Shown here: positions 7,124-24,281 of the stretch, piece after piece
Layout: each line of letters begins with the position of its first letter
Position numbering within the stretch: the stretch's first letter is position 1
IMG/VR virus record: IMGVR_UViG_2675903394_000002
Span: 1 to 24,281 of that record
Strand: one strand, 5' to 3'
Source of the DNA: a virus
Lineage: Duplodnaviria > Heunggongvirae > Uroviricota > Caudoviricetes
Length of the DNA: 24,281 nucleotides
Position numbers and translations under genes: made by a program
The notes under the pieces: generated by a model
Database searches by the model: none
What the model was told of the DNA's origin: nothing
What the model saw: the letters and a program-made list of their open reading frames with translations, nothing else

Positions 7124-7672
7124 ATGGCGAACAATCTTTTTTATACACTTGACAGGCAGCGCACACTGAAGTCAGGCATGAAAATTGAATTAGCAGAACC
7201 GTACTGCCCAATCGTTCCACTTCAGGCTCATACGAGCTCATTGTTTTCCGACGGTGTATCCCGGCATGCAAATAATCTTTTTTTCAACTACCACATAAAC
7301 CTCGTCAGCTCAGACGAACGATTTGGAGCAATAATAGAAATACTACTGGAAGAACGAAGGAAATCACACTTCCCTGAAAAACCATCACGCTTCCAATCAA
7401 TTTTTGCATGTGAGTCTGTAAAAGAAACCGCCTGGTTCAGAGGCTTTTCAAAATCCCCACTTGACACCCCAATATTTCAAGTCAGCTCATCGTCGAACTA
7501 TCATAGAGGTGATATGAATTTGTTAAATCTGAACTGCTCCCCAGTAGAAGTATCTCAGAGGCTGGATCTTTACTGGAAGGGTGAAACAACACAGATTTAC
7601 GAAGGGTATCAACCATTCTGGGAAGTGCTCATTCCATTGCCAGTTATTATTGGTGAAAGAATTATCGAATAA
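7124..7672 (+). CDS. Hypothetical soluble protein (182 aa), first gene of the inverted insertion between S and Q
   Basis: ORF on the strand opposite to the late operon in an AT-rich insert. No TM segments and no family recognised. Confidence 0.6.
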   Translation: MANNLFYTLDRQRTLKSGMKIELAEPYCPIVPLQAHTSSLFSDGVSRHANNLFFNYHINLVSSDERFGAIIEILLEERRKSHFPEKPSRFQSIFACESVKETAWFRGFSKSPLDTPIFQVSSSSNYHRGDMNLLNLNCSPVEVSQRLDLYWKGETTQIYEGYQPFWEVLIPLPVIIGERIIE

Positions 7673-7862
7673 TGGCTCTGACACCAGAATCATTTCCATA
7701 GCCGAACTGACGCTGACAGATTTTTAATTCGCTTATGGCTTTCTCCATTGCTAATAGCGCGTCTTCAGTACGGTAGCAATCAACCTCAAGAACAAACGTT
7801 TTGAGATTGCTACTATCATTCCCGGCGAAAAGCGCATAGCTGGGTTGACCAGTCTGATTCAT
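7662..7862 (-). CDS. Possible small antisense ORF (66 aa) whose start abuts a G9 tract
   Basis: ORF-track entry; the start ATG at 7862 is immediately preceded on the minus strand by GAGG plus a run of G. It converges on and overlaps the 3' end of the 7124-7672 gene by 11 nt. Could be spurious. Confidence 0.25.
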   Translation of the reverse strand: MNQTGQPSYALFAGNDSSNLKTFVLEVDCYRTEDALLAMEKAISELKICQRQFGYGNDSGVRAIIR

Positions 7863-8014
7863 CCCCCCCCCTCAAACGACGAAACCCGCTCGACGGCGGG
7901 TTTAAGCCACGTGACAAAGTAACCACTCTTAACACGATACAATAGTTTTTGCGTACGCGTTAGCATTTTTGTTAAAGTATAAAAATGTAATTAAACCAGT
8001 ATGTCATCACTACA

Positions 8015-8899
8015 ATGAAATGCATCCGAAAACATCCAGCAATAGCTTATACAGTAATTATTTTAGTTTTTGCCTTAATATACAATTTCACTTGGAGCGT
8101 CAATCCAGATTCTTTCATTAAAAACAACGTTCTCAACTCTACACCTGTATATGATGCCGTTAATTTAGCATATGCGAACAATGAGGTAAAAAAAGAAGCT
8201 CCTGTCAGTGTTTCGAGGGAAGTATTTGCAGAGCAAATTTTAACACTTACAAATCAATTCAATAAGATAATAATTGAAAACTTAGAACTTGAAAAAACAT
8301 TATCTCAGCAGCAAGAAAAATTAAAACAAATTAGTGAAAGACAATCAATAAAGTGGGGCGAAAACACCAAAAAATACATAGCAGACAGTTTGAAAGATTT
8401 ACACAAAACGCTTATCACTAAAAATAGTGAACGTACTGCCATAGCATCTTTAAAAAACAAAACAAATGAAAGTCAGATTAACACTATGCTGGCCGACAAA
8501 GATGAAGAAATAGCCAAAATAAACCTTGAAATAGCGTATAAAGAGTATGATGCTAATGTCTATATCTTATCTCATGTCGGCGACTTTAACGATCCAATAA
8601 TCGTTAATGAGCTTGACGCAATCAATAAAGAAATTGAGAAAACAAGAACAAAAATAATAAACAACAAAAAGAAAATAATGGAGATAAGGAATAAATCTCA
8701 ATCTATGCTGGAGAAACTCAAAAAAGATGACCTTAACTTTTTGGATTTCTTATTTTATAGCATAGGAATATCTACAACGACCACCTTTGGTGATTTGTTA
8801 GCAAATTCAAGACTTATCAGACTGATAGTTTGCGTGCAACTTTTACTATCAATTATAGTTTTAGCTAACGTAACTCAAAGATTTTTATCAAAAAAATAA
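8015..8899 (+). CDS. Hypothetical membrane protein (294 aa): N-terminal TM helix, Lys/Glu/Asn-rich coiled-coil domain, C-terminal potassium-channel-like pore helix/filter/TM module
   Basis: Hydrophobic segment AIAYTVIILVFALIYNFTW at about aa 9-27; heptad-like K/E/N/I-rich middle; C-terminal NFLDFLFYSIGISTTTTFGDLL (nt 8726-8794) followed by TM helix LIRLIVCVQLLLSIIVLANV. Very AT-rich codon usage. Confidence 0.7.
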   Translation: MKCIRKHPAIAYTVIILVFALIYNFTWSVNPDSFIKNNVLNSTPVYDAVNLAYANNEVKKEAPVSVSREVFAEQILTLTNQFNKIIIENLELEKTLSQQQEKLKQISERQSIKWGENTKKYIADSLKDLHKTLITKNSERTAIASLKNKTNESQINTMLADKDEEIAKINLEIAYKEYDANVYILSHVGDFNDPIIVNELDAINKEIEKTRTKIINNKKKIMEIRNKSQSMLEKLKKDDLNFLDFLFYSIGISTTTTFGDLLANSRLIRLIVCVQLLLSIIVLANVTQRFLSKK

Positions 8900-8906
8900 A
8901 AAACAA

Positions 8907-8926
8907 AGCCCTCAAAAATGAGGGCT
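8907..8926 (-). terminator. Rho-independent terminator hairpin (agccctca-aaaa-tgagggct), strongest on the minus strand just downstream of Q; also positioned to terminate the plus-strand 8015-8899 gene
   Basis: Perfect 8-bp stem with 4-nt loop. On the minus strand it is followed by UUGUUUUUUAUUUUUUU; on the plus strand by AAUUUAAA. Confidence 0.6.
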
Positions 8927-8936
8927 AATTTAAACC

Positions 8937-9281
8937 TTAAGATAAGAACGATAAAATCCCGTCCAAAAATCCTAGTGCAGTTTGCAATTCCTTTCTAATC
9001 GTGCCATCTGAACACCTTCTCTTCTTGGCAATAGTGCGTAATGAGATACCAATAACAAAGTGGGCAATTAGTAGCTCATATTCTTCTGGCTTATATTTAC
9101 GCAACCTCGCCACACATCCATCAATCATAAGACCTTCATCATCATCACACTGCATCCGGGACTTTTTGCCATGAGGTAAAAGCCCCTTGAAGCCTGCTGC
9201 TATCGGCTGCCAATCCACACTACTGTTATCTGCTGCAGCCCATGCTCCCCAGCGGTCCAAAACTTCATACATGTCACGCAT
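8937..9281 (-). CDS. Q: Late-gene antitermination protein Q (DLP12 QuuD-like, about 114 aa)
   Basis: MRDMYEVLDRWGAWAAADNSSVDWQPIAAGFKGLLPHGKKSRMQCDDDEG... resembles DLP12 QuuD as I recall it. Ribosome-binding site GGAGAAAG upstream of the ATG at 9281. The ORF track extends to 9335. Confidence 0.8.
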   Translation of the reverse strand: MRDMYEVLDRWGAWAAADNSSVDWQPIAAGFKGLLPHGKKSRMQCDDDEGLMIDGCVARLRKYKPEEYELLIAHFVIGISLRTIAKKRRCSDGTIRKELQTALGFLDGILSFLS

Positions 9282-9365: not shown

Positions 9366-9506
9366 TCATACTCCTGCTCCTGTCAGGGTTTTGGCGTAAT
9401 TCTTCAGTATTCGGTAATCGGTCAAAACAGAACCGGGGAAACGATATAAGCGCAGACGCCCCCAGCGGTGGCGAAGAAGTTCTGCTATATTAAACTCAAA
9501 CATCAT
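9366..9506 (-). CDS. ylcG: Small nin-region protein YlcG-like (46 aa)
   Basis: Manual translation gives [46 protein letters not shown]. The start overlaps the rusA stop. Below the ORF-track size cutoff. Confidence 0.65.
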
Positions 9507-10152: not shown

Positions 10153-10315
10153 GATTCCTCCTTGCTGCCAGTCGCAACCATTTTTTATCAACCAGGCTAG
10201 CGGTATATCCGAGCAGTGTTGGTATTTCGGATGGCTTCAGCTCAGGCTTACGCTTACGACGATTTGATACTCTGTAGATGTGTCCGTTCATGACACGAAT
10301 AAGCGGTGTAGCCAT
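10145..10315 (-). CDS. ninE: NinE (56 aa)
   Basis: Codon-by-codon manual translation gives [56 protein letters not shown], ending at a TGA at 10147-10145. The start overlaps the ybcN stop (TAATG). Confidence 0.75.
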   Translation of the reverse strand: MATPLIRVMNGHIYRVSNRRKRKPELKPSEIPTLLGYTASLVDKKWLRLAARRNHG

Positions 10316-10770
10316 TACGCCTCCTGCTTGTCGCGGAGCAGCTGGAACTCGCAGCTCTGCGGAATAGTCAGGTGGCAGCCAATATTCACCGCCCAGGCTT
10401 CAACCTTACACAGGAAGACATACATCTCTCCGGTATCAAGATCGGAGGTATGGCGTAACGACTGGATAGTGGTGATATCACCGGTTACGACATCAACCAG
10501 GTCTTTGGTTTCATAACCGAGATATGTGTGTTTGAGAGCATCTTTTACCCAAGCTGGAGTGGCGAACGTTTTACCCCTGCTGATGAGGTATTCACTGATT
10601 TCGCTGTACCACATGTGGCTGAGTGCATTCTGGGAAAGACTGCGTTTCTCACGCCACGGTTTAAGCACCATGCGAAAGCATTTGCCCTCCTCCAGATAAG
10701 GCTGGATCTGCCGACCGATAGCGGTGAAGTTGCCGCGATGTAATTTGATGCCGTCTTGTGAGAGGTTCAC
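10315..10770 (-). CDS. ybcN: YbcN-like nin-region protein (151 aa)
   Basis: The 151-aa ORF has the size and position of DLP12 ybcN. Ribosome-binding site GGAGGTG six nt upstream of the ATG. Confidence 0.8.
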
Positions 10771-10891
10771 GCTTCACCTCCGCAGAGGTCAAACGCTAGA
10801 TGCAAAGAATTGCAGGTGCATTTCTGCATCTGTGAAGGGAGAAGAGAGTTTGGATTGTATGTGCGCATAAACGTCCCCGTTTAGCGCAGAA

Positions 10892-10920
10892 GTCACCGGA
10901 GTTGTTCAGGCTCCGGTGAC
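10892..10920 (-). terminator. Perfect 10-bp inverted repeat (gtcaccggag - 9 nt - ctccggtgac) between ybcM and ybcN; stem-loop, possible terminator or attenuator
   Basis: Seen directly. Neither strand has a strong U tract after it, so its function is uncertain. Confidence 0.35.
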
Positions 10921-10984
10921 ATAATTATGCCGTGTTGATTTCCCAAAATCAAAATCGATAGAATTGCTCCTTCTTAAAACACTT

Positions 10985-11782
10985 TTACTCTCTGGAAGCT
11001 TTTCTTATCTCTCTTGGTGTTATATTAAAACGATTATGAAATCTTTCTGTAAAACGAGAAGGACACTTATAACCATTTTCTCTGGCAATCTCGCTTATAG
11101 GTTTTACCGTCGTTTGTATAGCAGACAACGCATTATTTAACCTCACATCGTCCAGTATACTTTGGAAACTTACCCCCTCGCTTGCTAGACGGCGATGTAA
11201 TGTAGAAACAGAAATGTAGAGATATCGAGCAACCTTGTTTGCTGTCCATTTTGTGCCGGGTTCGGATAGCAGCAGGTTATAACAACGACTTATCAATGAT
11301 TGTTTACTATATGATAAAAGTAAATGATTAACATGATTCACTCCTAACGAAAGTAGAACGCCCATTGCTAAGTGCTCCTGAATTTTAGTTGAGAAGCCTC
11401 GGGAAACAGATGTTTTTAGTTGCTCCCAACAATATATTAACTCAGGATTCTGAGGTAAAAAGAAACTTGTTTTGTTACGTATTTGATCAGTTACCGTATA
11501 AAGTTTTTGGAAACTCTCAATTAAATCAATGGGTAAGTAAAGCATTTCTGCAAGATAAAGCCCTGCTTCAGGATAATTCTCAATATAAAATTCATAACCA
11601 CAAGGAAATAATATTATTTGATTATTATCAACAGTTAAAGTATGCGTCTCCCAATTGATAACTTTCTTTCCCTGACGGATACGACACAAAGCTGGCATAA
11701 GAGGCTTAACCCTATGAATCTCATGATGTTTATGCATCCGTATTTCTTCGATCTTTAAGTTAGTCTTACCTCTTGCCAGCAT
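10985..11782 (-). CDS. ybcM: AraC-family transcriptional regulator (265 aa)
   Basis: C-terminal AraC-type HTH region (…[41 protein letters not shown]…); size and position match DLP12 ybcM. Confidence 0.85.
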
Positions 11783-11791
11783 ACTCTCACC

Positions 11792-12343
11792 CTACTTTAT
11801 CTCATAAACTGGTGTTATCTCAGCGGTTGCGATTTTATTAGCATTAAGCATATAACCAACTAACGCTCCGCTGGAGTTAGAATCTACAGGAATCTTTTCA
11901 GTTTTTAGAGCCCATACTTTAAACTGGTAATGATGTGGTTTATCTCCTTTAGGAGGACATGCGCCACCAAACCCAGCATAGCCAAAATCATTTCGGCCTT
12001 GAACAGCACCAGTCGGCAGTTTTGTTCCATCACGTCTCCCTGCATCAACGGGCAAATATGTTATTGTTGCTGGAATATTAACAACAGTCCAATGCCACCA
12101 ACCACTGCCTGTAGGTGCATCTGGATCATATACAGTTACGGCAAAGCTTTTGGTACCTTCAGGAACACCAGACCAGGTTAATGAGGGCGATGTATTACCA
12201 CCTTCACACCCAAATCCAGAAAAGACATGAGACGTTGTAAGTTGCTCTCCTGTTTTTATTTCATTACTAGTGACCTGAAATGCTGCAGCCTGCGCAGAAA
12301 ATGTTATGAATGCCAATACAGTTGAAACGATAAGTGTTTTCAT
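11792..12343 (-). CDS. ybcL: Secreted PEBP/YbcL-family protein (183 aa) with signal peptide
   Basis: N-terminal signal peptide MKTLIVSTVLAFITFSAQAAA; resembles E. coli YbcL. Confidence 0.85.
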   Translation of the reverse strand: MKTLIVSTVLAFITFSAQAAAFQVTSNEIKTGEQLTTSHVFSGFGCEGGNTSPSLTWSGVPEGTKSFAVTVYDPDAPTGSGWWHWTVVNIPATITYLPVDAGRRDGTKLPTGAVQGRNDFGYAGFGGACPPKGDKPHHYQFKVWALKTEKIPVDSNSSGALVGYMLNANKIATAEITPVYEIK

Positions 12344-12559
12344 AAAAACCTCTTTGTTATGATCTATCGTTATTTTATTTGATATTCCTTTATCTCATTA
12401 TGCATAAAGGCGCAATGTTTATGCAAAAGCAATCACAATTGTACCCCCAACCCAATTATTTGCCACAATATACACAAAGCACATTGATACTATCTAAAAA
12501 CCCTGCTTTATTATTAGTAATACCTACGAAAGTCGGTGTTATTTTTTAACCTACCATTC

Positions 12560-12609
12560 AAAATACGTGACATACACCATTTTGCTCATAATAATTTGTC
12601 ACGTATTTT
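12560..12609. repeat. Perfect 13-bp inverted repeat (aaaatacgtgaca ... tgtcacgtatttt) with a 24-bp AT-rich spacer in the ybcK-ybcL intergenic region
   Basis: Arms at 12560-12572 and 12597-12609 are exact reverse complements. Confidence 0.6.
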
Positions 12610-12807
12610 CAGTATTTGAATCTGCGACCAAGAGTTCTCACCTAACAAATGATTAAGATTGTATAGCTCATTTACTACCCCAATACAGCCGTACAAAACT
12701 CGCTTGTGGGAGCAAACAAAGTAATTACCCATTAAGTTTCGTCAAAGATAATTAATTCTGTCTTGCACTTTATCACCATAGCATAACTTAAAATCCGAGA
12801 TCATTAT

Positions 12808-14334
12808 TTAGAAATAAATCTCACCATCAACCATATATTTGAGAGCACTTATCGCCTGCTGGGCGGATATTACTTTCATTAAAGGATAGTGTTTAAAAAC
12901 AATGCCATTCATAAAATAGATACCACAGGTTTTATTATCCGTATTAATTATGATTTTTTCGAATGTTTTATAGGCAAGTGTACGGCATAACTCTCGTCCA
13001 TTTTTACTGGTTAAGTCAATAGCATAAAAATCACTGAATGAATTTACACCTTTACTCTTCAAAGTTTTCAATGATACCGAAGCCCTTCGTAATTCCTTAT
13101 CTAATAGTCTTATTTTCTCTGCTATAGCGGTAACTTCAGGCGCGACAGACAATGCAACGATTAAATTATTAATTTTCATCTGAAGCTCAATAATTTTTAA
13201 CTCTAAAGTTTCATTAGCATCTTTCTTGTTTTCAACTGGTTGAATTTTGCTACAATTAAAAAGCAATTCATTAATGATATTATAATCAACCAAATCTCTT
13301 TTTATTGATGGCCTGTCACATCGATGTAATCTTCTCATCGGACAAACATAATAGCCATGCAAACTTCCAGATACCGCATGAACAATCATGGTATTACCAC
13401 AAGCCTCACACTTCATAACTGTTCGAAGTAGATTTATTAGCATAGGATTCTTGCTACTATTGCTAATACCAAAAGGTGCCAACCGAATTTCCTGTACAGC
13501 GTAAAACAAATCATCTGATATAACTCTGGGATAATAGCCAGCGATTTCACTTATCCCTTTCCCTCTTGCACGATATGAAGGTACGCATATACCTATCAGA
13601 GCTTTATTCGCTAATAATTTTTCAATTACAGAAGGTCCCCATGCACTTTCTTTTCCTGAGAAATTCTTTACAGCATGATCATTTAAATACTTGGCTATTG
13701 CATTCAATGAGCGCCTTTCCATCCTGAGTTTAAAAATTAGCTCAATAGTTTTCACCCTGTCGGGGTCTGGAACAAAAGCCGTTCTTTTGTCATCTAAGGA
13801 GAGCCATCTCGGACAAGACGCCGTCATAATCGTACCTGATTCCATTGCATCCTGCCGTTTTTTCTTCCATGATAATTTAACCCGACTTGACTTTATCTCG
13901 CTTTCTTCATTTGCCCTTTGTGCTATAAGTATGGCTTTTATTAATGAATATGGCTCATTCAAAGAGTCAATATTATAGACTGTATTGTCGCAAAGAGTTA
14001 TAACATCAATACCGTGATTCAAAATCAATTTCAGACGTTCAATCGCTTCACCGACTTTTTCTCTTGAAAGTCTGTCCAGACTTTCAACTAACAATGTAGT
14101 TCCTGGCAATATATAACCATGCTCTATAGCATCTAAAAATTCCGAAAAAGCTCCTGATTGTGCATGCTTTCCTTTGAATGCACTTAATCCTAAATCTTCA
14201 TATGTTATGGTATCAAGATAATAATCACTATTTACCTTTAACCATTCAGCAATAAGTCTTCTCTGTCGGTTTAATGAGTCACCAGACATCTGACCTGGTG
14301 ATGAAAATCGCATATATGCTATGGCTTTTTTCAT
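12808..14334 (-). CDS. ybcK: Large serine recombinase (508 aa)
   Basis: N-terminal resolvase-type catalytic motif AYMRFSSPGQ and a Cys-rich region (CPRW…C…CEACG…CPMRRLHRC) typical of large serine recombinases; size matches DLP12 YbcK. Confidence 0.85.
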   Translation of the reverse strand: MKKAIAYMRFSSPGQMSGDSLNRQRRLIAEWLKVNSDYYLDTITYEDLGLSAFKGKHAQSGAFSEFLDAIEHGYILPGTTLLVESLDRLSREKVGEAIERLKLILNHGIDVITLCDNTVYNIDSLNEPYSLIKAILIAQRANEESEIKSSRVKLSWKKKRQDAMESGTIMTASCPRWLSLDDKRTAFVPDPDRVKTIELIFKLRMERRSLNAIAKYLNDHAVKNFSGKESAWGPSVIEKLLANKALIGICVPSYRARGKGISEIAGYYPRVISDDLFYAVQEIRLAPFGISNSSKNPMLINLLRTVMKCEACGNTMIVHAVSGSLHGYYVCPMRRLHRCDRPSIKRDLVDYNIINELLFNCSKIQPVENKKDANETLELKIIELQMKINNLIVALSVAPEVTAIAEKIRLLDKELRRASVSLKTLKSKGVNSFSDFYAIDLTSKNGRELCRTLAYKTFEKIIINTDNKTCGIYFMNGIVFKHYPLMKVISAQQAISALKYMVDGEIYF

Positions 14335-14588
14335 GGTGACACCTGCTAACGTATGCTTTTATAAACCTTAGTGGTGGGATATAATTTTTGTTTAATTTTT
14401 ATTTAAAAAGACAATTAAGGTCACATTATCTTGAATATACAACAATAATCGTATTGCAATTTTCTTACGCCATAATCTTGAAAGCACAAAAGAATACATA
14501 AAAAATAAAGACATTAACAAAAAGCATAAAACGAGGCTCATATAAATATAAGAGCCTCCATATTTTAGTCGTTTAGAAACAAATTATT

Positions 14589-14921
14589 TTAATGTGGTGT
14601 GCTTCGTGACAATAAATTAATAACCAACACACCGGCACAAATCAACATCATGCCTATAATGGCTGGCAGGTCCAGCCGTTGGCCGAAAAATCCCCATGAC
14701 AGTAAACTAATCAGGACAATACCGACTCCTGACCAGATAGCATAAGCAATCCCTGTAGGAATATAAGCCAGCGTCTGAGCTAATAACCAGAATGATGCAC
14801 AATAACAAATAATTGTACCAACAGATGGCCATAACCGTGTAAAACCTTCTGAAAACTTCATTAAGGTTGTACCAATGACCTCTGCAAGTATTGCACCACC
14901 AAGATAAATATAAGGGTTCAT
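14589..14921 (-). CDS. emrE: Small multidrug resistance (SMR) efflux transporter EmrE (110 aa)
   Basis: MNPYIYLGGAILAEVIGTTLMKFSEGFTRLWPSVGTIICYCASFWLLAQTLAYIPTGIAYAIWSGVGIVLISLLSWGFFGQRLD... is near-identical to E. coli EmrE with four TM helices. The ORF track extends to 14975. Confidence 0.9.
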   Translation of the reverse strand: MNPYIYLGGAILAEVIGTTLMKFSEGFTRLWPSVGTIICYCASFWLLAQTLAYIPTGIAYAIWSGVGIVLISLLSWGFFGQRLDLPAIIGMMLICAGVLVINLLSRSTPH

Positions 14922-14988
14922 AGCATATTCTTTCCTGTTCAAACTGGAGAGAATTGTACTACAGTTTGAACTCAACTCACCTGTTTCA

Positions 14989-15291
14989 TCATTGTGTTCC
15001 CATTGATGTTCTTTTATATACCCTCAATACCCGTTTCATCGCGGCACTCTGGCGACACTCCTTAAAAATCAGATTCGTGCTCACCTTTCCTTCCCGTTCT
15101 TCTCTGGTAGCGAACCGGTAATACACCGTTCGCCAGACCTTACCATCAACGACCAGGATTCCTGCCCGCGCCATTTTAGCCGCAGCCTGATTTATGCTGG
15201 TTACGGTTGCGCCTGTTACCGCGGCAACGTCCTGTGCACAGAAGCTCTTATGCGTCCCCAGGTAATGAATAATTGCCTCTTTGCCCGTCAT
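14989..15291 (-). CDS. ren: Ren protein (100 aa)
   Basis: MTGKEAIIHYLGTHKSFCAQDVAAVTGATVTSINQAAAKMARAGILVVDGKVWRTVYYRFATREEREGK... matches lambda Ren. Confidence 0.85.
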   Translation of the reverse strand: MTGKEAIIHYLGTHKSFCAQDVAAVTGATVTSINQAAAKMARAGILVVDGKVWRTVYYRFATREEREGKVSTNLIFKECRQSAAMKRVLRVYKRTSMGTQ

Positions 15292-15989
15292 ACACTTGCT
15301 CCTTTCAGTCCGAACTTAGCTTTAATTTCTGCGATCTTCGCCAGAGCCTGTGCACGATTTAGAGGTCTACCGCCCATAACAGGAAGTTGTTTTACTGGTT
15401 CAGGTATCGTCTCACCACGGTTAATTCGCGCTGTCATACAGGTCAGTTCATCGGCAGCCTTGCGCCGTAATTCCGCGTCAGTCAGCGCATTGGCCCGCAT
15501 GTTCTGGTACAAGTTGGTAACCAACCAGTAATGCGCGTTCGATTTCCACGGATAAGACTCTGCATCCGGATACAGGCCACGCTTCCGGCAATACTCGTAA
15601 ACCATATCAACCAGCTCGCTGACGTTTGGCAGCCCGGCGTTAACAGATGCTTCTTCCCGGCACCAGGCGACAAACTGCCCGGGTGATGGCAGGAATGGTC
15701 GATTCTGCCGACGGGCTACGCGCATTCCAGCGTTAACCTGTTCCATTGTGGTGATCCCGTTTTCCCGGAAAGCCAGAACCCACTGGCGGCGGATTTCGTT
15801 CAGTTCATTCTGGTCACGGTTAGCCAGGCTCGCCGGGAAAGTTGCCAGTAACTGGCTTAACACACCGTTGATGATCTGCGCTACCTGCTGTACCTGTGGC
15901 TTTTCGTCGTACTGTTCCGGCATGTTGTTGGCGATCCGGCGCATCTGCTCACAGTCAAAGTTAACCATCTGTGCGGCGATGTTTTTCAT
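15288..15989 (-). CDS. P: Replication protein P (DnaB helicase loader, 233 aa)
   Basis: MKNIAAQMVNFDCEQMRRIANNMPEQYDEKPQVQQVAQIINGV... is colinear with lambda P; start overlaps the O stop. Confidence 0.95.
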   Translation of the reverse strand: MKNIAAQMVNFDCEQMRRIANNMPEQYDEKPQVQQVAQIINGVLSQLLATFPASLANRDQNELNEIRRQWVLAFRENGITTMEQVNAGMRVARRQNRPFLPSPGQFVAWCREEASVNAGLPNVSELVDMVYEYCRKRGLYPDAESYPWKSNAHYWLVTNLYQNMRANALTDAELRRKAADELTCMTARINRGETIPEPVKQLPVMGGRPLNRAQALAKIAEIKAKFGLKGASV

Positions 15990-22919: not shown

Positions 22920-23262
22920 GGCCTGTCAGTTTCTTAAGATATCCAGACCAACCGCCACCAACTGGATACGAACAGGCCGCCTACAGGCAACACGTAAAGA
23001 TCCAACCAAGCCAAAATCTCCTTACCTCACAACACGGCAAGCCTGCATTGCGGCGCTTCAGTCTCCGCTGCATACTGTCCAGGTGAGCGCGGGTGATGGC
23101 ATAACAGAGGAAAGAAAATGTCACTCTTCCGCAGAAATGAAATATGGTATGCCTCGTATTCGCTCCCGGGCGGGAAACGAATTAAGGAATCTCTTGGCAC
23201 AAAGGACAAGCGGCAAGCTCAGGAGTTGCACGACAAGCGAAAAGCAGAACTCTGGCGAGTAG
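22891..23262 (+). CDS. xis: Excisionase-like DNA-binding protein (HTH; about 124 aa if it runs to the stop at 23262)
   Basis: [31 protein letters not shown] is an excisionase/AlpA-type HTH; it lies immediately upstream of int and overlaps it by about 145 nt. Confidence 0.5.
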
Positions 23263-24281
23263 AAAAGCTAGGGGATTTACCTGATGTCACTTTTGAAGAG
23301 GCCTGCCTAAGATGGCTTGAGGAAAAAGCTGATAAAAAATCTCTCGATTCAGATAAAAGCCGGATTGAGTTCTGGCTTGAACATTTTGAGGGTATAAGGC
23401 TTAAAGATATCTCGGAGGCAAAGATTTACTCTGCTGTAAGCAGAATGCATAACAGAAAGACGAAAGAAATATGGAAACAGAAAGTTCAGGCCGCCATCAG
23501 GAAAGGTAAAGAACTGCCTGTTTATGAACCAAAGCCAGTATCAACTCAGACAAAGGCAAAGCATCTTGCCATGATAAAGGCCATTCTCCGTGCTGCAGAA
23601 CGCGACTGGAAGTGGCTGGAAAAAGCGCCTGTCATCAAGATACCAGCGGTCAGAAACAAGCGAGTCAGATGGCTGGAAAAGGAGGAAGCAAAACGCCTTA
23701 TTGATGAGTGCCCCGAACCACTGAAATCTGTCGTCAAGTTTGCGCTGGCAACTGGTCTGAGAAAGTCGAACATCATAAATCTGGAATGGCAACAAATCGA
23801 CATGCAGCGACGAGTTGCCTGGGTGAATCCAGAAGAGAGCAAATCAAACCGCGCCATTGGTGTGGCGCTGAACGATACCGCCTGTAAAGTGTTGCGTGAT
23901 CAAATAGGCAAGCATCACAAATGGGTGTTTGTACATACCAAGGCGGCTAAGCGAGCAGATGGAACATCAACGCCTGCGGTCAGGAAGATGCGCATCGACA
24001 GCAAGACATCATGGCTATCAGCTTGTCGTCGTGCAGGAATTGAAGATTTCCGTTTCCATGACCTCAGACACACCTGGGCAAGCTGGCTGATTCAGTCAGG
24101 CGTCCCATTATCAGTGCTTCAGGAAATGGGCGGATGGGAGTCCATAGAAATGGTTCGTAGGTATGCTCACCTTGCGCCTAATCATTTGACAGAGCATGCG
24201 AGGAAAATAGACGACATTTTTGGTGATAATGTCCCAAATATGTCCCACTCTGGAATTATGGAGGATATAAAGAAGGCGTAA
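23118..24281 (+). CDS. int: Tyrosine integrase (DLP12 IntD-like, 387 aa)
   Basis: [36 protein letters not shown]... with C-terminal catalytic residues (…[13 protein letters not shown]… …MVRRYAHL…); stop at the last three bases of the window. Confidence 0.95.

Follow-up and report, generated by a model that had tools for sequence, protein, structure and literature searches.

Why should a prophage that already has a tyrosine integrase carry a second, serine-type recombinase? The question is raised by IMG/VR virus record IMGVR_UViG_2675903394_000002, whose 24,281 nucleotides (nt) were analysed as one stretch, here called the window. Between ren and ylcH/ybcN, the minus strand of an AT-rich island in this window holds ybcM, ybcL, ybcK, ylcJ and emrE, with the recombinase encoded by ybcK, and a tyrosine integrase gene, intD, closes the window. 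A prediction made from the letters alone (the original prediction) had described the island, judged the serine recombinase surplus to integration, and suggested that it could be the remnant of a nested element or could drive inversion or excision of the island. Our comparisons show that ybcK is intact, under strong purifying selection and not a fossil, and that the island fills a general hypervariable cargo site of lambdoid phages. The explanation that we favor, as probable rather than certain, is a DLP12-type mosaic cargo cluster with a working accessory recombinase, YbcK, that would be silent in lysogens and would find its targets elsewhere. The features on which the argument turns are listed below (aa, amino acids; E, expectation value).

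10954..15024, minus strand: cargo island, a variable block flanked by conserved phage backbone; its limits (the second approximate, ~15024) were set by comparison with other phages, using blastn breakpoints against five other loci and against 33 ren-bearing IMG/VR contigs; G+C 36.2%, against 48.8% for the remaining window.
10985..11782, minus strand: ybcM, AraC-family transcription regulator (Pfam HTH_18 PF12833, E 9.5e-17, residues 185-261), annotated ybcM in Escherichia coli S10 and K-12.
11792..12343, minus strand: ybcL, periplasmic PEBP/RKIP-like protein (Pfam PBP PF01161, E 7e-42; NCBIfam PRK09818, 399.8 bits against a cutoff of 277).
12808..14334, minus strand: ybcK, predicted 508-aa large serine recombinase of integrase type (Pfam Resolvase, Recombinase and Zn_ribbon_recom domains).
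14392..14541, minus strand: ylcJ, 49-aa hydrophobic small protein in the untranslated leader of ybcK (from translation and annotation).
14589..14921, minus strand: emrE, SMR-family multidrug efflux transporter of 110 aa (Pfam Multi_Drug_Res PF00893, E 3e-35).
14989..15291, minus strand: ren (from annotation), whose last ~12 codons (14989-15024) lie inside the variable block.
23118..24281, plus strand: intD, prophage tyrosine integrase and last gene of the window (NCBIfam tyrosine-recombinase models), which adjoins argU (tRNA-Arg) in S10 (locus L001).

The gene arrangement is the already known emrE-ybcK-ybcL-ybcM cargo island of DLP12-type lambda-like E. coli phages, as the original prediction had recognized. 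A prophage at argU in E. coli S10 that looks complete matches the island at 99.9% identity, and DLP12 of K-12 matches it at 99.6-99.7% DNA identity (99.6-99.9% over 4.6 kb for the two together). In K-12 the corresponding genes are annotated emrE, ylcJ, ybcK ("putative recombinase"), ybcL, ybcM, ylcH and ybcN, and those between ren and ylcH/ybcN come in the same order, emrE-ylcJ-ybcK-ybcL-ybcM. In a set of 5,426 complete E. coli genomes, the island is present over at least 80% of its length in 670, ybcK in 1,427, and a spacer specific to the DLP12 type in 675. The open reading frame (ORF) list and the profile searches agree with the earlier description of four minus-strand genes in AT-rich DNA with long spacers: ybcL and ybcK lie 464 nt apart, and 254 nt, which include ylcJ, separate ybcK from emrE. 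The end it gave for the island, 14975, turned out to be the TTG start of an over-extended ORF reaching past the annotated emrE, and its gene list, right for the four larger genes, had missed two small annotated ones, ylcJ and ylcH (10767-10868). The view that the serine recombinase is surplus stood, given IntD at the end of the window.

YbcK appears to be a catalytically complete large serine recombinase of the integrase type. Its catalytic domain (PF00239, E 5e-19, residues 4-161) is accompanied by a Recombinase domain (PF07508, E 2e-14), a zinc ribbon (PF13408, E 8e-8) and an inserted coiled coil. The nucleophile serine with its arginine and aspartate partners (R9, S11, D87, R88, R91, E143/E144) and the zinc-ribbon cysteines (C309, C312, C331, C339) are invariant across 19 aligned relatives of 41-61% identity, and the inactivating substitution at the catalytic serine that the original prediction had asked about is absent. 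The AlphaFold2 (AF2) model (predicted local distance difference test score, pLDDT, 78.5), with long helices at residues 373-397 and 401-427, was matched by Foldseek over its full length, coiled coil included, to serine integrases (9dxd, E 1.9e-18; 9tep; 9iu2; 4kis), among them PhiC31, Bxb1 and LI. The closest NCBIfam match was the excision recombinase XisF, at 47 bits far below its cutoff of 375.

The gene is also well preserved. Pairwise ratios of nonsynonymous to synonymous substitution (dN/dS) between E. coli ybcK alleles are 0.05-0.09, with dS up to 0.17; ybcK is an intact 508-aa ORF in 79 of 80 IMG/VR phage contigs, and it is present in the isolated phages PhiR70_1, PhiR68_2, 4A7 and 1W. 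Inactivated copies are rare: an IS2 insertion in one genome (H35), a premature stop at codon 31 in one contig (L258), and a deletion in another (L207, 1265-2233 nt right of the anchor match defined below) that has left the 3' half of ybcK fused with part of emrE.

The borders of the island are those of a much more general site, whose ylcH-side border is marked by a palindrome.

10935..10952, no strand assigned: palindrome TTGATTTCCCAAAATCAA (TTGAT-N8-ATCAA), the fixed ylcH-side border of the cargo site and the only match to this pattern in the window.

An anchor just inside the backbone (window 10884-10908) was matched in at least 120 IMG/VR contigs (loci L102-L221), 99 of them usable, and 98 of these 99 carry TTGAT-N8-ATCAA. 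The backbone is conserved to 10953 in every cargo variant (blastn, five other loci); after the palindrome, the 99 contigs diverge within 1-2 nt into 44 unrelated cargo-start clusters. A sigma-70-type promoter-like match on the minus strand (TTGATT-17-CATAAT, 10952..10924) uses one arm of the palindrome as its -35-like hexamer, which would account for backbone conservation ending exactly here. On the other side, homology resumes at ~15025, 36 nt inside the 3' end of ren, and this recurs in 33 ren-bearing contigs, among which cargo length runs from 774 to 4747 nt. We considered the ren-side border as an insertion point and rejected it: because the C-terminal tails of Ren stay alike at the protein level across loci, the border reflects decay of homology. 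With many unrelated gene sets at one fixed backbone position, between ren and ylcH/ninB, this is a moron hot spot. Only 10 of the 57 contigs extending at least 4.5 kb past the anchor carry ybcK. The island thus shares its borders with a site at which cargo is exchanged without any recombinase.

Other occupants of the nin site include a 646-aa SIR2-domain protein (L017, 3755-5695), a YajG-like lipoprotein with a hypothetical partner (L006, 3262-4271) and a DUF4041 protein, all of them possible defence or surface-modifying cargoes. Just upstream of ylcH, in the conserved backbone, the minus strand of 10884-10934 forms a G+C-rich hairpin (GTCACCGGAG...CTCCGGTGAC, z = -4.5) overlapping a 9-codon mini-ORF (MSPEPEQLR); it may be a terminator or attenuator, in the place that tR2 has in lambda.

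Within these borders the cargo itself comes apart into pieces, for which the following smaller elements are needed.

12344..12498, minus strand: upstream region of ybcLM, which travels with ybcL-ybcM and is also present in a fliE-adjacent copy without ybcK.
12499..12766, no strand assigned: 268-nt piece of spacer confined to the DLP12-type arrangement (ybcK, then ybcLM); single copy in 675 of 5,426 E. coli genomes and absent from loci L002-L005.
12560..12609, no strand assigned: 50-nt inverted-repeat element with perfect 13-nt arms AAAATACGTGACA / TGTCACGTATTTT and a 24-nt spacer.
14533..14558, minus strand: hairpin GAGGCTC...GAGCCTC followed by a T-rich run, 31 nt past the emrE stop codon, as read from the sequence.

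The ybcK-bearing variants share only 12767-15400 with the window, that is, emrE-ylcJ-ybcK plus 41 nt past the ybcK stop. Downstream of this unit four states were found: ybcLM in the window, an esterase gene (L003, phage 4A7), a P22AR fragment with a hypothetical gene (L004), and nothing (L005, a locus that adjoins icd and has its own tyrosine integrase). The reverse also occurs. About 2,800 of the 5,426 complete genomes match the island at 90-95% identity, and all 15 listed examples, together with two loci inspected in context (L002, and HH45 at 98% identity), are a phage remnant beside fliE that consists of ylcH-ybcM-ybcL-emrE and a ren stub. Going by those 15, roughly half of E. coli genomes (~2,800 of 5,426) would carry emrE-ybcL-ybcM without ybcK. 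The homology of two such copies to the window spans 10768-12498 on the ylcH side (L002, 6001-8153; L101, 4001-6154); what they lack is the 2083-nt ylcJ-ybcK segment (12499-14581), and they join window position 12498 to 14582 with only 4 nt unaligned. The difference is old, because the spacers with and without ybcK are only ~70% alike. HH45 combines coding parts that are 97-99.5% DLP12-like with a spacer of the fliE type, a pattern that points to gene conversion between DLP12-type and fliE loci. Taken together, the alignments show that the island is modular.

The original prediction had suggested searching for att-like or invertible-segment repeats around the island. That search gave only chance-level pairs: the best long-range ones are 15-27 nt long at 70-80% identity, and neither the island nor ybcK nor any cargo gene is bracketed by direct or inverted repeats. 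Across 26 family loci, the DNA within 150 nt of the gene showed neither terminal inverted repeats nor shared flank motifs in excess of shuffled controls, and no conserved non-coding flanks were found between ybcK orthologs. The order P, ren, emrE, ybcK, (ybcL, ybcM), ybcN, all on one strand, holds in all 80 IMG/VR loci, with no inverted arrangement, and 670 of the 675 genomes with the DLP12-type spacer hold at least 80% of the island as a single co-linear place. Breakpoints of the variants downstream of the ybcK stop differ (41, 67 and >146 nt), on which ground integron-like capture at one site 3' of ybcK was rejected. An 18-nt match between a Yersinia flank and ssrA (E 0.01) was discounted, being weak and wrongly oriented, and ylcJ was rejected as a recombination directionality factor on account of its product, a 49-aa hydrophobic peptide.

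One structure does stand out. The 50-nt element at 12560-12609 sits between ybcK and ybcL, 199 nt past the end of ybcK, and occurs only in the 675 DLP12-type genomes. Its DNA fold of -9.9 kcal/mol (z = -4.1) was equalled by none of 200 shuffles, and we estimate the chance expectation within the island at ~0.01; no T-run follows it on either strand. Its size would suit a serine-integrase attachment (att) site, and size is the single property that suggests this. Downstream of other family genes, inverted-repeat elements of ~50 nt had arms at chance level only.

YbcK is not confined to E. coli. Close relatives of ~505-522 aa are found in Atlantibacter, Yersinia, Pantoea, Erwinia, Kluyvera, Ewingella and Citrobacter, as full-length orthologs 41-61% identical across genera, and they occupy three kinds of place. 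In Atlantibacter and Pantoea lambdoid prophages the gene takes the matching nin position, with the replication genes on one side and Q on the other. In Atlantibacter, Erwinia, Ewingella, Yersinia rohdei and Yersinia enterocolitica it is the last prophage gene, past a tail-fibre chaperone gene and beside host genes, lepA in Erwinia and nrfA in Y. rohdei among them. In other cases it is found in plasmid-like or conjugative-element-like regions. Within IMG/VR, a search for the family gave E. coli copies and two Yersinia contigs only. The clearest example of the second kind is an Atlantibacter locus (L011, 8001-10432) where a 59%-identical relative ends a prophage with Mu-type tail genes and converges on the transfer-messenger RNA gene ssrA, 539 nt off, a geometry equal to that of intD and argU in the window prophage. 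In "Candidatus Pantoea alvi" (L035, 9256-12865), two copies of replication gene P, one riddled with stops and one intact, flank a relative encoded on the opposite strand. Insertion of the recombinase into gene P was rejected here, as there are two different copies of P, one of them a pseudogene; the arrangement looks like a junction of two phage genomes.

Published work places a Rho/NusG-dependent terminator, t_ybcK, in the leader of ybcK, and mutations in rho or nusG relieve the repression of the gene (PMC4150792); Hfq is reported to bind ybcK DNA in a polyphosphate-dependent manner (PMC10954037); and ybcK is counted among the 16 site-specific recombinases of K-12 and was not required for excision of the H47 island (PMC5426353). 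In the papers retrieved on ybcK and on DLP12 serine recombinases, some of them read in part, no recombination activity of YbcK is reported, and the gene appears only as a "putative recombinase," a Rho/Hfq-silenced locus and a sabinene-tolerance gene (PMC4150792, PMC10954037, PMC7181518, PMC5426353), in line with the original statement that its function is not established. As to its neighbors, expression of ylcJ has been reported (PMC6001520), and a further report describes binding of YbcM upstream of ybcLM by chromatin immunoprecipitation with exonuclease digestion (ChIP-exo) and an effect of YbcM on peroxide survival (PMC8464067).

From these observations we propose the following picture. Recombination among phages would have assembled the cluster from three or more self-contained units: emrE, apparently with its own terminator hairpin; ylcJ-ybcK, behind a leader containing the Rho-dependent terminator; and the ybcLM operon, autoregulated by YbcM (PMC8464067). 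The serine recombinase would have neither delivered nor delimited these units. YbcK itself is most likely a working site-specific recombinase, which the phage would carry as an accessory. In the lysogen, ybcK would be silenced by Rho termination together with binding of its AT-rich DNA by Hfq and polyphosphate. Upon induction it would probably be transcribed with the antiterminated early-right operon, from which its orientation, shared with O, P, ren and Q, would let it be read. Its DNA targets would lie away from the borders of the island, and it may act on them as an integrase or excisionase.

The neighboring genes fit their annotations. YbcM has the C-terminal double helix-turn-helix of the AraC type (PF12833). 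YbcL has a PEBP fold, matched by PDB entry 1FUX at residues 20-183 (E 2e-112); a match beginning at residue 20 fits a cleaved N-terminal signal peptide. EmrE, a four-helix SMR transporter, scores 240.6 bits against NCBIfam SMR_efflux_EmrE NF042984 (cutoff 226), and the 11-nt inverted arms and T-rich run of the hairpin past its stop codon resemble an intrinsic terminator, although the consensus scan did not call one. The backbone gene ybcN occupies 10315-10770. No PADLOC model matched YbcM, YbcL, YbcK, EmrE or Ren at E <= 0.01, and assignment of the island to a defence system was rejected on these zero matches; an Rfam search of the spacers returned no known RNA family at E <= 0.1. Elsewhere in the window, the prophage has another cargo locus in a second AT-rich stretch (7600-9000, G+C 0.30-0.39), where Q and the lysis genes flank a plus-strand porin gene resembling nmpC/ompD (~7611-8708). 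The annotation of the S10 prophage, which is 99.9% identical, gives ylcG a frameshift (L001, 10668-10807, corresponding to window ~9367-9506).

Several other explanations have to be set against this one, and they divide on whether YbcK works at all and on what. One is that ybcK has no present function and is what decay has left of a formerly nested element. This would suit a gene that is surplus to intD, sits in silenced AT-rich DNA (PMC4150792, PMC10954037) and is occasionally disrupted, as in H35, L207 and L258. The selection data largely refute it: a decaying gene would not be expected to show such low dN/dS, a nearly unbroken series of intact ORFs, invariant catalytic and zinc-binding residues, full-length orthologs in other genera, some at the same nin position, and carriage by phages isolated as viable particles. 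We regard a remnant, the first of the two earlier proposals, as highly improbable, and nothing nested is visible either: no end repeats were found, ybcK is internal to the island, and the borders are shared with recombinase-free cargoes. The same selection could be explained if what keeps YbcK were not recombination but, for example, DNA binding, regulation or stress tolerance. No recombination substrate is known, and ybcK overexpression is reported to have raised sabinene tolerance by 128% in BL21(DE3), and knockout to have lowered it (PMC7181518). That phenotype came from T7-driven overexpression with no known mechanism, and a nucleophile and full catalytic set invariant in 19 of 19 relatives are unexpected if catalysis is dispensable, which makes this reading, to our mind, a quite unlikely one.

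If YbcK does recombine DNA, the island itself or its own gene could be the substrate. Inversion or excision of all or part of the island, in the manner of the Gin, Pin and Hin switches or of the SpoIVCA and XisF excisionases, has precedents among serine recombinases, for example PinQ in the Qin prophage (PMC12529663); XisF is the best NCBIfam match, albeit far under its cutoff, and the significant 50-nt element lies nearby. The lack of bracketing repeats beyond chance, the single order and orientation in every contig, the co-linear genomes and the size of the protein, an integrase type with a coiled coil that is unlike a ~190-aa invertase, leave this as the least probable of the explanations considered. 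More can be said for the 2083-nt ylcJ-ybcK segment being, now or formerly, a small self-mobile unit, with YbcK putting its own gene between emrE and ybcL, or a gene-sized cassette moving among phage contexts. The polymorphism of presence and absence is clean, with the near-perfect junction of the fliE copies; 59%-identical Atlantibacter relatives occur in two phage contexts, with homology starting only ~66 nt upstream of the gene; and the homology of E. coli variants ends 41-67 nt past the ybcK stop. Against this, no terminal repeats or flank motifs beyond shuffled controls and no conserved non-coding flanks were detected; its downstream breakpoints differ and thus define no single crossover site; in E. 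coli the segment was never found apart from emrE; and the spacers are so diverged that the polymorphism could equally be an ancient deletion. We consider it unlikely.

A mosaic cluster with an accessory recombinase acting elsewhere accordingly remains the explanation we prefer, and some observations weigh against it too. In E. coli, ybcK is always linked to emrE, and a purely random mosaic predicts otherwise. No YbcK recombination site was identified, and no product of YbcK action appeared in any genome comparison. Sabinene tolerance, the only phenotype reported for ybcK (PMC7181518), is not obviously linked to recombination. The HMMER comparison with PDB sequences gave nothing meaningful for YbcK, so the family is unlike solved serine integrases by sequence and site preferences cannot be transferred from the known enzymes. 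For the relatives at prophage ends, it is position and geometry only that suggest a true integrase role. A more specific version can be offered as a speculation with a small chance of being right: the YbcK family might be selectively maintained accessory serine integrases, expressed early-right, that give phages with tyrosine integrases a second site-specific reaction, whose target in DLP12-type phages might be the 50-nt element at 12560-12609. If so, the second reaction might be one of integration or excision at some secondary site, or one that rearranges the DNA of the host or of a competitor.

As far as gene content goes, the island is textbook K-12 material and its existence no discovery. 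DLP12 of K-12 (emrE b0543, ylcJ b4733, ybcK b0544, ybcL b0545, ybcM b0546) has the same genes, order, orientation and spacers, the same position between ren and ylcH/ybcN, and the same intD at argU; it differs in having lost its replication genes and in an IS3 that interrupts renD, whereas the window prophage looks complete, with O, P, an intact ren, lysis and head genes. What is new is that ybcK is shown not to be a fossil and is placed in a phage family that also holds integrase-like positions in other genera. A gene of "unknown function" thereby becomes a tractable question: on which sites does a large serine integrase, probably an active one, act? An enzyme of this type could serve as a tool for genome engineering, and further accessory and defence genes of phages can conveniently be sought at the fixed-border site between ren and ninB.

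The known systems closest to YbcK are the large serine integrases (PhiC31, Bxb1, A118/LI and TP901-1), with which it shares architecture, catalytic residues and full-length structural matches. Unlike theirs, its gene is not beside the phage-host junction and has no known att site, and the phage that carries it integrates by a tyrosine integrase. Small serine invertases (Pin of e14, PinQ, PinR and Gin of Mu) are likewise prophage-borne and surplus to integration, and some YbcK relatives directly follow tail-fibre chaperone genes, the classic position of an invertase. Such invertases, however, are ~190 aa long, have a C-terminal helix-turn-helix and act on inverted repeats around a short segment, while YbcK has 508 aa and neither flanking inverted repeats nor inverted variants were found. 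With moron hot spots the island shares fixed borders, many alternative cargoes (44 start types, including the YajG-like lipoprotein, esterase, SIR2-domain and DUF4041 genes), AT-rich DNA and autonomous transcription units, and compared with the other occupants of such sites it is unusual only in carrying a recombinase gene.

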